Origin: Eledone cirrhosa | Taxonomy: Eukaryota | DNA length: 64,000 bases | Assembly: GCA_964016885.1 (NCBI GenBank) | Contig: OZ024741.1 | Location: 352,346,001 to 352,410,000, forward strand | Reading direction: 5' to 3' | Part shown: one piece after another, positions 578-63,298 of the stretch | How positions within the stretch are numbered: position 1 is the first letter of the stretch | Layout: every line of letters starts with the position of its first letter | The notes under the pieces: model-generated | Databases searched by the model: none | Seen by the model: only the letters and a program-made list of their open reading frames with translations | What the model was told of the DNA's origin: nothing | Position numbers and translations under genes: made by a program

Positions 578-702
578 TAGGAGGTGAGTTTTATTGTAGT
601 ACAATAAAGCAATGCAGATATCGGATAAGAAGCACTCTACAGTTTGTGGGAATGGAGTATGCATAATATAAGATCAAAAGATGGTTAAAGGAGTTCCATG
701 TA

Positions 703-766
703 TTTTATTATGCGCATTTCAAAAACAAACATCATCAAGCAATATTTGTGTTTTCATCAGATAAAA
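703..766 (-). ncRNA. Minimal type I hammerhead ribozyme
   Basis: On - strand: ttttat-CTGATGA-stem II-GAAA-tgcgca-TA-ataaaa. Confidence 0.8.
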
Positions 767-893
767 CAGGAGAACATGATATGAAGGCTAAAAAACACTT
801 GTTGATAGTGCAGTTTTAAATCAACATATCATATGTTGATTTAAAACTGCACTATCAACAAGTATTTTTTAGCCTTCATATCATGTTCTCCTG

Positions 894-960
894 TTTTATC
901 TGATGAAAACACAAATATTATTGCTTGATGATGCTTGTTTTTGAAATGCGCATAATAAAA
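894..960 (+). ncRNA. Minimal type I hammerhead ribozyme
   Basis: ttttat(894-899) CTGATGA(900-906) stem II aaaca..tgttt GAAA(943-946) palindromic tgcgca, TA cleavage site, ataaaa(955-960) closes stem I. Confidence 0.82.
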
Positions 961-1000
961 TATATGGAACTCCTTTAACCATCTTTTGATCTTATATTAT

Positions 1001-1362
1001 ATATGTATATATATATATATATGTATATATATATATATGTATATATATATATATATGTATATATATATATATGTATGTATATATATATATATATGTATAT
1101 ATATATGTATATATATATGTATATATATATATATATGTATATATATATATATGTATGTATATATATATATATGTATGTATATATATATATATGTATGTAT
1201 ATATATATATATGTATGTATATATATATATATATAAATATATATATATATATATATGTATATATATATATATGTATATATATATATGTATGTATATATAT
1301 ATATATATATATATATATATATAATGTATATATATATATATATGTATATATATATATATATG
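1001..1362. repeat. (TA)n/(TATG)n microsatellite
   Basis: Direct inspection. Confidence 0.98.
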
Positions 1363-1363
1363 T

Positions 1364-60550: not shown

Positions 60551-61110
60551 CTCATGGTCGGGTCGTTGGCGACTAAACTGGCAACCCCACCAAGGTTTCT
60601 TGGTGAGGAGGGTGACTTTGGACATCCTGCAGGACTAAAAACAAAACCTGTCAAAGGGCAAAGGAGCTCTTAAGAGTCAATGGCCATCCAAAATCACAGG
60701 GAGAGATGACACCTTAACCTTTGTCAAGGCAGAATTTTAGGAGAAGGAAAACTCTGATATAACACCTGCAACCCTGATGGTATCCAATGATGTTGACTTG
60801 TTCTTCGTTTTGGTAAATATCATCTTGGTTAAGAGAGTGGGACTGGCTTTGTGCAGTGCCTTTGCTCACTATAAAAGCTTCACAGCACAGGCATTGCTTT
60901 ATATCTGGAGATCTCTCTGCACTTGTCGTCACATGGTACCATGGGCCCAGCACTATGTGTCAATAATTGTCACAAGTGTAGTCTTTGTACCCGAGTTTTC
61001 AAGTCGCTGGCTGGACTAAAAAGTCACATTCGTTCAGCGCATTGGTAGGGGTTCTCCTACATGGATATAAAGTAGTGGCCGTACTCGAAAACGAGTTGGC
61101 AGCCACCATG
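60551..61110 (+). mobile_element. Longest copy (~560 bp) of bipartite non-autonomous RTE-BovB derivative (5' UTR fused to ORF end + 3' stem-loop)
   Basis: 60715-60897 resembles RTE 5' UTR 46620-46825 (ttgtca.ggca, taggagaagg, atgatgttga, agtggga.tggct, ctcact.taaaag, gcacaggcattgc); 60970-61110 resembles RTE 3' end 50340-50415 + 50641-50679. Confidence 0.82.
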
Positions 61111-62890
61111 TATGATATATATATATGTATGTATGTATATAAATGTATGTATGTATATAAATATATGTATGTATATAAATATATGTATGTATATATATAT
61201 ATATGTATGTATGTATATATATATATATGAATGTATATATATATATATGAATGTATGTATATATATATATATGTATGTATATATATATATATGTATGTAT
61301 ATATATATATATATGTATATATATATATATATATGTATGTATGTATATATATATATGTATATATATGTATGTATGTATATATATGTATGTATGTATATAT
61401 ATATATGTATATATATGTATATATATGTATGTATGTATGTATATATATGTATGTATATATATATATATGTATGTGTATATATATATATGTATATATATAT
61501 ATATATGTATATATATATATATATGTATATATATATATATATGTATGTATATATATATATATGTATGTATATATATATATATATATGTATGTATATATAT
61601 ATATATGTATGTATATATATATATATATATGTATGTATATATATGTATGTATATATATATATGTATGTATATATATATATGTATGTATATATATATATAT
61701 ATGTATATATATATATATGTATGTATATATATATATGTATGTATATATATATATGTATGTATATATATATATATGTATGTATATATATATATATATATGT
61801 ATATATATGTATGTATATATGTATATATATATATGTATGTATATATATATATGTATGTATATATATATATATGTATGTATATATATATATATATATATGT
61901 ATATATATGTATGTATATATATATATATATGTATGTATATGTATGTATATATATATATATATGTATGTATATGTATGTATATATATATATATATGTATGT
62001 ATATGTATGTATATATATATATATGTATGTATATATATGTATATATATATGTATGTATGTATATATATATATATACATATATATGTATGTATGTATATAT
62101 ATATATATATACATATATATGTATGTATGTATGTATGTATATATATATATATATATGTATGTATATATATGTATGTATATATATATATATATGTATGTAT
62201 GTATATATATATATATGTATATATATATATATGTATGTATATATATATATATGTATGTATATATATATATATGTATGTATATATATATATATATATATGT
62301 ATGTATATATATATATATATATATATGTATATATATATATATATGTATATATATATATATATATATATATATATATATATGTATGTATATATATATATGT
62401 ATATATATATATGTATATATATATGTATGTATATATATATATGTATATATATATATGTATATATATATGTATGTATATATATATATATATATATATGTAT
62501 ATATATATATATATGTATATATATATATATATATATATATATATATATATGTATGTATATATATATATGTATATATATATGTATGTATATATATATATGT
62601 ATATATATATGTATGTATATATATATATGTATGTATATATATATATGTATGTATATATATATATGTATGTATGTATGTATATATATATATGTATGTATAT
62701 ATATATGTATGTATATATATATATGTATGTATATATATATATGTATGTATATATATATATGTATATATATATGTATGTATATATATATATGTATGTATAT
62801 ATATATGTATGTATATATATATATGTATGTATATATATATATGTATATATATATATATATATGTATGTATATATATATATGTATGTATAT
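61111..62890. repeat. (TA)n/(TATG)n microsatellite
   Basis: Direct inspection. Confidence 0.98.
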
Positions 62891-63018
62891 GTAGGAGGTG
62901 AGTTTTATTGTAGTACAATAAAGCAATGCAGATATCGGATAAGAAGCACTCTACAGTTTGTAGGACTGGAGTATACATAATATATAAGATCAAAAGATGG
63001 TTAAAAGAGTTCCACGTA

Positions 63019-63085
63019 TTTTATTATGCGCATTTCAAAAACAAATATCATCATGCAATAATATTTGTGTTTTCATCAGATAAAA
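63019..63085 (-). ncRNA. Minimal type I hammerhead ribozyme
   Basis: - strand ttttat CTGATGA ..GAAA tgcgca TA ataaaa. Confidence 0.8.
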
Positions 63086-63194
63086 TAGGAAGACATGATA
63101 TGAAGGTTAAAAAACACTTGTGAATAGTGCAGTTTTATGATTTAAAACTGCACTATTCACAAGTGTTTTTTAACCTTCATATCATGTCATCCTA

Positions 63195-63259
63195 TTTTAT
63201 CTGATGAAAACACATATTATTGCATGATGATATTTGTTTTTGAAATGCGCATAATAAAA
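63195..63259 (+). ncRNA. Minimal type I hammerhead ribozyme
   Basis: ttttat CTGATGA(63201-07) aaaca..tgttt GAAA(63242-45) tgcgca TA ataaaa. Confidence 0.82.
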
Positions 63260-63298
63260 TACATGGAACTCTTTTAACCATCTTTTGATCTTATATAT

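Follow-up and report, generated by a model that had tools for sequence, protein, structure and literature searches.

At this locus, TA arrays are interspersed with inverted-arm structures, single-armed copies of the same ends and a broken reverse transcriptase ORF (Table 1). The window analyzed is 64,000 nt of Eledone cirrhosa DNA (contig OZ024741.1), of which about 46% is microsatellite, and 34,600 of its 64,000 bases fall in the 25 islands used. The first-pass annotation had described seven inverted-arm structures with a one-sided tail, and all seven (A to G) are present at the places claimed. The two arms of a structure differ by 0 to 5 substitutions, mostly transitions, and 0 to 2 gaps, and a tail of 55 to 87 nt extends a single side of each. 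Three single-armed copies absent from the earlier list (H, J1, and J2) represent both end types, tail-less and tail-bearing. The four motifs quoted for the short ends, cttata, aacaata, gttcctat, and tttata, were all located, and the outward orientation of the 3′ ends was borne out by the ORF in B and by hammerheads in both arms of A, G, and D. TA runs on both flanks hold for A, B, C, F, and G, which have long arrays on either side, but the tail sides of D and E have just 8 to 18 nt of TA. As so much of the window is microsatellite and the same TA arrays also hold RTE and other LINE ends, TA flanks are of low diagnostic value here. An Rfam search of the window gave no matches. We regard the seven structures as, very probably, truncated insertions of Penelope-like elements (PLEs).

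Table 1. Features of the seven inverted-arm structures and three single-armed copies, in window positions
Copy	Position	Strand	Feature
A	663-829/831-1000		Arms; tail 85 nt, loop 1 nt (830)
A	578..662	-	Tail, 85 nt
A	634..658	-	Hairpin motif of tail; 2-bp inner stem
A	663..829	-	Tail-bearing arm; contains minimal hammerhead of type I (709-760)
A	831..1000	+	Tail-less arm with hammerhead (900-954)
B	4132-4200/6547-6615		Arms; tail 55 nt, spacer 2346 nt
B	4132..4200	-	Tail-less 3′ end of long body, joined to TA
B	4664..4966	-	GIY-YIG endonuclease, C-terminal piece (P0003)
B	4970..5833	-	RT palm end (YVDD), thumb, CX4CXXC linker (P0002)
B	5769..6546	-	5′-truncated RT fingers piece (P0001), motifs A and B′ separated by a long insertion
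B	6547..6615	+	Inverted tail-bearing arm, 69 nt
B	6590..6670	+	Frame of 27 codons opening with ATG, running from arm into 55-nt tail (6616-6670); start of PLE ORF
H	7878..7955	-	Single-armed tail-less B-type end; inner end as in B; TA on both sides
C	10450-10473/10476-10499		Arms; tail 63 nt, loop 2 nt
C	10450..10499	.	Perfect arms, 24 bp, 2-nt loop
C	10500..10562	+	Tail, 63 nt, hairpin motif 10506-10538
D	18250-18390/18392-18556		Arms; tail 87 nt, loop 1 nt (18391)
D	18250..18390	-	Tail-less arm; hammerhead core at 18348; without 25 nt that the other arm has
D	18392..18556	+	Tail-bearing arm with hammerhead (18458-18502)
D	18554..18640	+	Tail, 87 nt, hairpin motif 18556-18577
E	21383-21434/21443-21488		Arms; tail 78 nt, spacer 8 nt
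E	21305..21382	-	Tail, 78 nt, hairpin motif 21354-21377
E	21383..21434	-	Tail-bearing arm; 21383 is the fixed inner end of the family
E	21435..21488	+	8-nt spacer (family sense sequence) and tail-less arm
J1	45130..45372	+	Single-armed B-type end: hammerhead-like motif (45151), ATG (45291), tail
J2	45480..45700	+	Single-armed D-type end: hammerhead 45513-45561, hairpin motif 45618-45637, tail
F	55116-55258/55394-55536		Arms; tail 68 nt, spacer 135 nt
F	55116..55258	-	Tail-less arm
F	55259..55393	.	Spacer, 135 nt
F	55394..55604	+	Arm and 68-nt tail, hairpin motif 55541-55569
G	62974-63137/63143-63303		Arms; tail 85 nt, spacer 5 nt
G	62892..63137	-	Tail and tail-bearing arm; hairpin 62948-62972, hammerhead 63025-63079
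G	63138 to about 63298-63303	+	5-nt spacer (family sense sequence) and tail-less arm, hammerhead 63201-63253

Structure B contains a PLE-type reverse transcriptase (RT) in one ORF, now broken into three pieces, and its sequence identifies it as an endonuclease-bearing PLE with a C-terminal GIY-YIG domain. The ORF has 61 relatives, the best being an Octopus vulgaris protein at 64%, and the GIY-YIG piece, which is accompanied by CCHH residues, matches the Pfam GIY-YIG region of P0026 (E 1e-14). The three pieces themselves gave no direct Pfam matches, and relatives match RVT_1 weakly; a PDB sequence search (alignment A2) returned two weak bacterial RT matches only, the atlas feature look-up led to eukaryotic RT clusters without names, and the N-terminal 230 aa of P0013, used as a query, matched only itself. 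The linker of B, CTNRKCIIC, fits the CX2-5CXXC pattern of Neptune/Nematis. The distance from RT motif A to B′ is 129 to 134 aa in all eight proteins checked (131 aa in B), and motif B′ of this lineage reads GAAIG or GGAIG, not MG. The marks of the Hydra clade (CxCX5C linker, no CCHH, DKT motif) were not found in B, and its relatives have DKSG.

B combines a 5′ truncation and an inverted copy with a one-sided tail extending the ORF start. When the window was searched with a profile of the N-termini of 18 relatives, the tails of J1 (E 7e-4 and 1.4e-3) and B (E 0.035) made up the top 3 of 6,396 peptides; matches of the B tail peptide to single relatives are weak (1 of 20 at 2/200 shuffles; L009 at 46/1000). 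The profile settles that the B tail encodes the start of its own ORF. Arm and tail together form a reading frame that opens with ATG and corresponds to the N-terminus of full-length relatives; the template therefore ran on into the next copy and, with the ORF start in the tail, neither start of reverse transcription is the RNA 3′ end. The earlier proposal that one cDNA was primed there is thus unsupported. The 3′ region of B has only a degenerate hammerhead-like motif (4381), that of J1 is near-canonical, and the relatives L007 and L009 have a hammerhead, in L007 along with a terminal (TA)9. Direct terminal repeats are found in the relatives L002 and L009, L015 has decayed inverted ends without a definable tail, and the truncated B copy shows no tandem direct pseudo-LTR.

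Strict hammerhead matches number six in the window and none in 100 shuffles. Over seven arms, stem I and the palindromic loop III are 98.6% paired, with one compensatory change. Structures A and G, 88% identical, belong to one family and have their ends in common but different centers; D and J2 are related to them (z 9 to 26), and C and F show a weak likeness (z 3.8, 0/200 shuffles as good). With six of the seven structures also sharing a tail hairpin, the claim of at least five unrelated families has to be given up, and two PLE lineages likely lie behind the seven, one represented by B and the other by A, G, D, C, F, and E. The likeness between D and the hammerhead-ATG region of L009 is modest at the DNA level, 4/150 shuffles being as good. 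In the parts retained by C, E, and F, neither an ORF nor a hammerhead was found; the tails of A, G, D, C, E, and F had no match to the N-terminus profile and no ORF start, and the F spacer showed no clear self-palindrome (39/500 shuffles) and no match.

The first-pass annotation had named random short-arm ends within families as evidence against its reading. Inner ends recur between A and G and between B and H, and the inner end of E is fixed and TA-joined across many copies: two raw runs contain 588 and 487 reads (with 57 and 60 starts) in which TA adjoins 21383, as it also does in 167 contigs. Another run, X1, which carries a different organism label, covers E at far lower depth and was set aside. 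The copy number of E is very high, and its copies mostly run past the center of the present one, 6,507 of 9,383 molecules ceasing to fit at 21434. The tail end of E is not placeable from the reads; a fixed tail end at the joints 21305 and 21285 was considered and dropped, as these joints run over a local TA remnant.

The hairpin shared by A, G, D, C, F, and E is bulged and lies 3 to 7 nt past the tail-less (inner) end. It is found, in outward orientation, in all seven non-B tails (J2 included), in neither of the two B-type tails, and in 1 to 9 of 2,000 shuffled tails, and its inner stems differ in sequence yet pair, the pattern of covariation. The descriptor, drawn from these same tails, hits nine further places in the window, and its 16 matches at a stem of 3 or more compare with a shuffled mean of 2.1 and a maximum of 9. 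None of the five tails that were folded reached a significant z (-1.6 to +1.5), and in the MAFFT alignment the motif of C and F was left unaligned. Among six published Hydra-clade consensuses, inspection by eye found the hairpin to be exact in three (the 3′ tail of Hydra-2_Amil and Hydra-2_Ajap and the 5′ start of Hydra-1_Ajap) and near in Hydra-1_Crog; it was not seen in Hydra-1_Obim or Hydra-1_Amil. We give about even chances to the hairpin being a protein-binding mark that places the inner start. It is a better candidate for a start signal than the TA microhomology suggested previously. The TA overlaps at the inner ends, measured by eye as 3, 7, 1, 4, 4, 1, 4, and 3 nt, do exceed those at random positions (P 0.014 to 0.028), but two of the eight, those of C and D, are of 1 nt, and the start observed in vitro is not homologous to the cut DNA (PMC11167929), so that microhomology as the determinant of the inner start is weakly supported.

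The sequences between the arms measure 1, 1, 2, 5, 8, 135, and 2,346 nt, and under a simple exponential model the excess of short loops has P about 5e-5 or less. Of the earlier view that truncated cDNAs were joined head to head, the head-to-head join, the PLE origin, the (TA)n targets, and the two sites bracketing the tail stand, but independent truncation is unsupported because five of the seven arm pairs meet within 8 nt. The spacer belongs to the tail-less, and thus longer, arm in all three assignable cases, B, G, and E (E from 237 contigs), A and D being ties; with three cases, this polarity has a chance of 1 in 8. Of the 13 variable columns, 8 sort the arms by locus and none by arm type, and later conversion between the arms could be an alternative source of such locus-shared alleles.

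Taken as a whole, the structures are 5′-truncated PLE insertions in (TA)n arrays that probably arise from a TA break of which each end primes reverse transcription on a shared tandem RNA, followed by a template switch. Two internal start sites, 55 to 87 nt apart, would bracket the tail, the hairpin placing the inner one and TA pairing of 1 to 7 nt merely helping. The polymerase begun at the tail end would displace the leading cDNA, usually catch up with it and, with the trailing cDNA now switched onto this leading strand, copy the latter back to the other target end. The outcome would be 3′ ends that face outward, a single tail, a very small loop, and ownership of the spacer by the tail-less arm. 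For the core of this scheme, one RNA serving both primers and the switch of the trailing cDNA onto the leading one, we lean toward acceptance. More tentatively, the hairpin might be conserved by covariation among the (TA)n-targeting PLEs of octopus, coral, sea cucumber, and copepod and be a cis signal for an internal start 3 to 7 nt upstream, with a dimeric PLE protein (two polymerases on one RNA) switching onto the leading cDNA that it has itself made and so closing the insertion.

An alternative that we consider unlikely is self-priming, in which the template, either an antisense RNA or a complete cDNA including its tail, bends back on itself at a short natural inverted repeat; copying then yields a hairpin, one arm of which is trimmed by the endonuclease at the inner site before insertion. 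Self-priming accounts for tiny loops and shared alleles and has been published as the explanation of palindromes where PLE copies meet in inverted orientation (PMC3846280); for the tail, endonuclease-mediated resolution has been invoked (PMC8557442). The observed polarity also fits self-priming if the template is antisense (PMC3846280); if a cDNA that was primed from the tail end simply folded back, the tail-bearing arm should be the longer one, and B, G, and E show the opposite. The center of E could be a natural stem and H ends in a 9-bp terminal palindrome, but the overlap at the B junction is about 1 nt (by eye), single-armed copies of both kinds exist, and both ends are starts of reverse transcription in vitro (PMC11167929). 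The original proposal, one cDNA from the RNA 3′ end and another started internally by TA microhomology, independently truncated and end-joined, looks improbable: the layout fits two-ended priming, and the TA overlaps and the long spacers in B and F speak for it, but the tail of B is an ORF start rather than an RNA end, the loops of five structures are 8 nt or less, and the 1-nt overlaps and the nonhomologous in vitro start weigh against its choice of priming site. That some of the ORF-less islands (C, E, and F) are fold-back DNA transposons or MITEs targeting TA, and not PLE products, is very doubtful. The lack of an ORF and hammerhead and the abundance of E would suit such elements, but the tail is one-sided, its hairpin has the same offset as in the hammerhead-bearing A, G, and D, and most E copies continue past the present center; in place of symmetric fixed termini and a fixed interior we found common ends with differing centers in A and G, and single-armed copies. 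Any target-site duplication would be masked by the TA arrays. Fold-back artefacts of library or assembly are hardly credible, for although the region is repeat-rich and none of the reads and contigs listed bridges the center of D or E, the arms differ by transitions and indels, the centers of A and G differ, and the same inner end recurs both among independent copies (A/G, B/H) and in the raw reads from other samples.

How PLEs form inverted copies and tails and home to microsatellites is called open in PMC8557442 and has been answered only in part by the in vitro work of PMC11167929; a short conserved hairpin at a set distance from the inner start and the rule of spacer ownership make both questions testable. 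If the hairpin signal and the switch are both true, the missing step of PLE integration gains a polarity rule along with a defined RNA element. With the motif, ORF-less palindromes that annotation tools take for MITEs could be filed as PLE ends, and such near-perfect palindromes, in their thousands, could give rise to hairpin RNA and fragile sites.

In L1 twin priming, a single RNA is primed from two target ends, with a 5′ inversion as the product; the L1 inversions are non-overlapping parts of the RNA, whereas here both arms copy the same part. The notion of a new microsatellite-targeted system does not hold, as the layout of an inverted truncated copy, a one-sided tail, a (TA)n target, and two starts is already known (PMC8557442, PMC3846280, PMC11167929). 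According to Craig et al. 2021 (PMC8557442) and Arkhipova et al. 2013 (PMC3846280), PLE insertions have an inverted 5′-truncated copy, a one-sided tail extending the ORF start (12 to 22 codons in Pen2a_Av), junction palindromes, and a (TA)n bias, all matching our structures in kind. The published tails are of 30 to 40 bp, shorter than those here, and five of our seven are nearly loop-less miniature forms. The accessible text of the two papers mentions neither a tail hairpin nor a spacer-owning arm, and no description of the hairpin or the polarity rule was found in openly readable literature, a word search of PMC8557442 included. Among PLE clades, Hydra elements have (TA)n targets and a hammerhead 35 to 60 nt before the TA-rich end and are present in Octopus (Craig et al. 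2021, PMC8557442). Our copies A, G, D, J2, C, E, and F lie at TA targets, a hammerhead was located in A, G, D, and J2 but not in C, E, and F, and some Hydra consensuses have the hairpin. The 6-nt palindromic loop III of A, G, and D differs from the stem III of 3 to 4 bp listed there for Hydra. The window has no Hydra-type ORF, and five 11-nt motifs of A, D, E, and F are absent from the supplement of Craig et al. 2021. B resembles Neptune/Nematis in its C-terminal GIY-YIG, CCHH, and CX4CXXC linker with short, Nematis-like spacing, but in the reference rows motifs A and B′ are about 60 to 65 aa apart (by eye), roughly half the distance in the B lineage, and B has a fingers insertion that these clades lack. 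Minimal PLE hammerheads are of type I with a palindromic loop III and form opposite-strand pairs 100 to 700 bp apart in Schistosoma (Cervera and de la Pena 2014, PMC4209133); the hammerheads predicted in A, G, and D share type and loop, and the retained parts of C, E, and F are without the motif. A non-LTR retrozyme, which needs tandem head-to-tail hammerhead units (bioRxiv 10.64898/2026.07.22.740005), was rejected, the hammerheads here being on opposite strands. The closest experimental parallel to the starts is Poseidon of Anolis, whose protein in vitro cuts and extends both strands at AT-rich DNA (Frangieh et al. 2024, PMC11167929). Poseidon belongs to another clade, is without (TA)n arrays, and has a start reported as nonhomologous to the cut DNA, and the study does not address inverted products or their joining. 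Its protein is predicted to be a dimer and, as proposed for the window elements, two internal starts bracket the tail within the ORF start and lie near a stem-loop (PMC11167929).

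About half of the window consists of compound TA microsatellite, with retroelement DNA lying as islands within it. The first-pass annotation had described inverted arms with a single one-sided tail at seven places, and we found this arrangement at all seven (islands A to G, Table); as a pattern, the structures are real. The arms of a pair differ by 0–5 substitutions and at most two gaps, with 12 of 18 changes being transitions, the pattern expected of DNA aged in place. The TA flanks were confirmed as long arrays on both sides of A, B, C, F, and G, but the tail sides of D and E carry only short TA. 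The proposed minimum of five unrelated families was reduced by sequence comparison to four groups, consisting of A, G, D, and the single-armed copy J2 (from 45480); B with the single-armed copies H (from 7878) and J1 (from 45130); C and F, weakly joined; and E.

Table. Islands and other features of the window, and two loci related to B
Feature	Position	Tail (nt)	Loop (nt)	Description
A	578 (start)	85	1	two-armed
B	4133 (start)	55	2346	two-armed
C	10450 (start)	63	2	two-armed
D	18251 (start)	87	1	two-armed
E	21306 (start)	78	8	two-armed
F	55116 (start)	68	135	two-armed
G	62891 (start)	85	5	two-armed
H, 5' end	7944-7961			perfect 9-bp loop-less palindrome; minimal second arm or natural AT-rich hairpin
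J1 and J2	45130-45700			single-armed ends of both lineages, adjoining, in one orientation, each with hammerhead and tail; outside large TA array
Island between TA arrays	37859-38133			right end like B tail end by eye; computed match not significant
RT insertion, B lineage	5769-6546 (-)			RT motif A set apart from B' by about 65 additional residues, also in P0004, P0011, P0013, P0025, P0026, P0032, P0044; C-terminal-endonuclease PLE proteins with motif B' of GGAIG type
RTE-type LINE copies	1364-3888, 12934-16322, 19110-21126, 36121-36360			and shorter ends; within the same TA arrays; (CAT)n tails; PHD finger downstream of RT (Pfam)
LINE pair	40772-44159, 46911-50422			80% alike, inverted, 2.7 kb apart, on either side of J1/J2
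Young repeat	11720-12587, 56543-57561, 58681-59734			three copies (95-99%), short tandem tail at end; last two inverted about 1.1-kb TA array
SINE-like family	8893-9216, 40035-40228, 60799-61154, 50645-50690			common end point, then TA
Minisatellite	22105-22397			63-nt unit, 4.6 copies, 94% alike
L009	3237-3441, 1-690			circularised full-length B relative; ATG 73 nt after hammerhead, then ORF start
L002	1-6055			B relative; 936-nt direct terminal repeat containing 21/105-nt minisatellite

The stretch 18377-21442, which takes in the tails of D and E together with their long arms, was compared with the reads of two raw RAD runs and with two sets of contigs; one of these four, X2, may come from the same sample as the window. 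Depth over E in the raw run X6 was approximately 10,000-fold in comparison with 0.05 on unique DNA, showing that E is highly repeated. The joint between TA and 21383, the inner end of E, was present in 167 contigs and in raw reads of both runs, 588 (57 starts) and 487 (60 starts), and the depth of the E tail in the raw runs was about equal to that of the arm (10,430 reads at 21359 in X6). A D-related subfamily showed a TA joint near 18540 in 1244 and 1104 reads, with 20 starts each. In 237 contigs, what lies past the E arm starts with the reverse complement of the spacer, and the E spacer is thus the sense sequence of the tail-less arm. The local TA remnant absorbs joints, and a fixed E tail end could not be placed from reads; of the reads listed for this stretch, none crosses a palindrome centre.

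A protein of Penelope-like retroelements (PLEs) cleaves AT-rich DNA on both strands and extends each of them, and its reverse transcription has two internal starts, one on either side of the tail (PMC11167929). Among 13 variable columns, the two arms of one locus were alike at 8 and grouping by arm type was seen at none; the longer arm is the tail-less one in B, G, and E, while A and D tie. We infer a scheme where both target ends would prime on one RNA: the polymerase begun at the tail end would trail, displacing the leading cDNA, and would then switch onto that cDNA, copying it as far as the opposite target end. The single-armed copies, of which both kinds occur (H; J1 and J2), fit each start site acting alone. 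The main rival to this one-RNA switch is self-priming on an antisense template (PMC3846280), which accounts for the same facts. The joining of independently truncated cDNAs, as originally suggested, would rarely give the close arm starts seen in five of the seven pairs (≤8 nt apart; with mean lengths set at 100–300 nt, P is at most 5e-5 under a simple model and for palindromes chosen by eye).

TA microhomology had been put forward as the signal for the inner start. The overlap of 1–7 nt is above chance but slight, and a hairpin in the tail is the likelier signal, judging from its fixed offset from the inner end: it starts 3–7 nt beyond that end (14 nt in J2, whose end is an estimate). The hairpin is common to tails here and to Hydra-clade consensus ends (PMC8557442 supplement) and runs from RCTC through an inner stem-loop and a 2-nt bulge to GAGY. 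A descriptor made post hoc, after the motif had been seen, was present in all seven non-B tails, always facing outward, and in neither of the two B-type tails; shuffled tails contained it 1–9 times per 2000, and it matched nine times elsewhere in the window (against a background with mean 2.1 and maximum 9). The inner stems vary (CAG/CTG, CAA/TTG, TACT/AGTA, AGTAT/ATACT, and AGGGG/CTCCT), and the outer A–T pair is replaced by G–C in C and F. Folding of whole tails was not significant, and with no Hydra ORF in the window, the link to that clade is tentative.

A strict scan identified six hammerheads of the minimal type I form: A and G each carry one per arm, and D (in a single arm) and J2 supply one apiece. 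Across 100 shuffles it gave no hit; the second arm of D also has the core, outside these six matches. Over seven arms, 98.6% of the cells in stem I and the palindromic loop III were paired, with one compensatory change. No hammerheads were found by scanning C, E, and F. Directly past the hammerhead, A, G, D, and J2 each show ATG, replaced by GTG in one arm, and a stop 3–4 codons on, the short frames of D and J2 beginning with MVL as in B-clade proteins.

Element B carries, on the minus strand, three ORF pieces with RT fingers, YVDD, thumb, a CX4CXXC linker, and a GIY-YIG domain, none of the three directly matching Pfam. We found 61 protein relatives, the nearest named one being from Octopus vulgaris (64% identity), and a Pfam scan of seven gave GIY-YIG in one and weak RVT_1 in two. 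The arm and tail of B at 6590-6670 form a 27-codon ATG-led open frame that stops at the TA array. When a profile of N-termini from 18 relatives was searched against 6396 window peptides, the top three were the J1 and B tails (E values 7e-4, 1.4e-3 for the J1 tail, and 0.035 for the B tail). The B tail is thus where the following ORF of a tandem transcript begins, which contradicts the earlier placing of the tail-end start at the RNA 3' end. Among 16 related loci examined, L007 has a hammerhead and terminates in (TA)9, L015 has inverted but decayed ends, and L009, with the order hammerhead, ATG, and ORF, is a candidate source for a map of the intact element.

The linker of B is Nematis-like, while the distance between RT motifs A and B', 129–134 aa in all eight proteins checked, is about twice that of reference PLEs, whose spacing was read by eye. 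Canonical PLEs are without an insertion here (PMC8557442), and the B lineage is, on its protein sequences, possibly an undescribed clade. Earlier publications (PMC8557442, PMC3846280, PMC4209133, PMC11167929, PMC8969392) cover the layout, the targeting of TA, the palindromes at junctions, the hammerheads on opposite strands, and the pair of start sites. We found no description of the tail hairpin, of 55–87 nt tails as a rule, or of spacer polarity in our literature searches or in a keyword search through PMC8557442; published figures may show tail placement. The published Hydra consensuses do have tails this long, uncommented in the text examined (PMC8557442), and by eye the hairpin is exact in three of six, near in one, and not seen in two. 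The B tail has parallels in Pen2a_Av (PMC3846280) and Poseidon (PMC11167929), where the tail is likewise the start of the next ORF.
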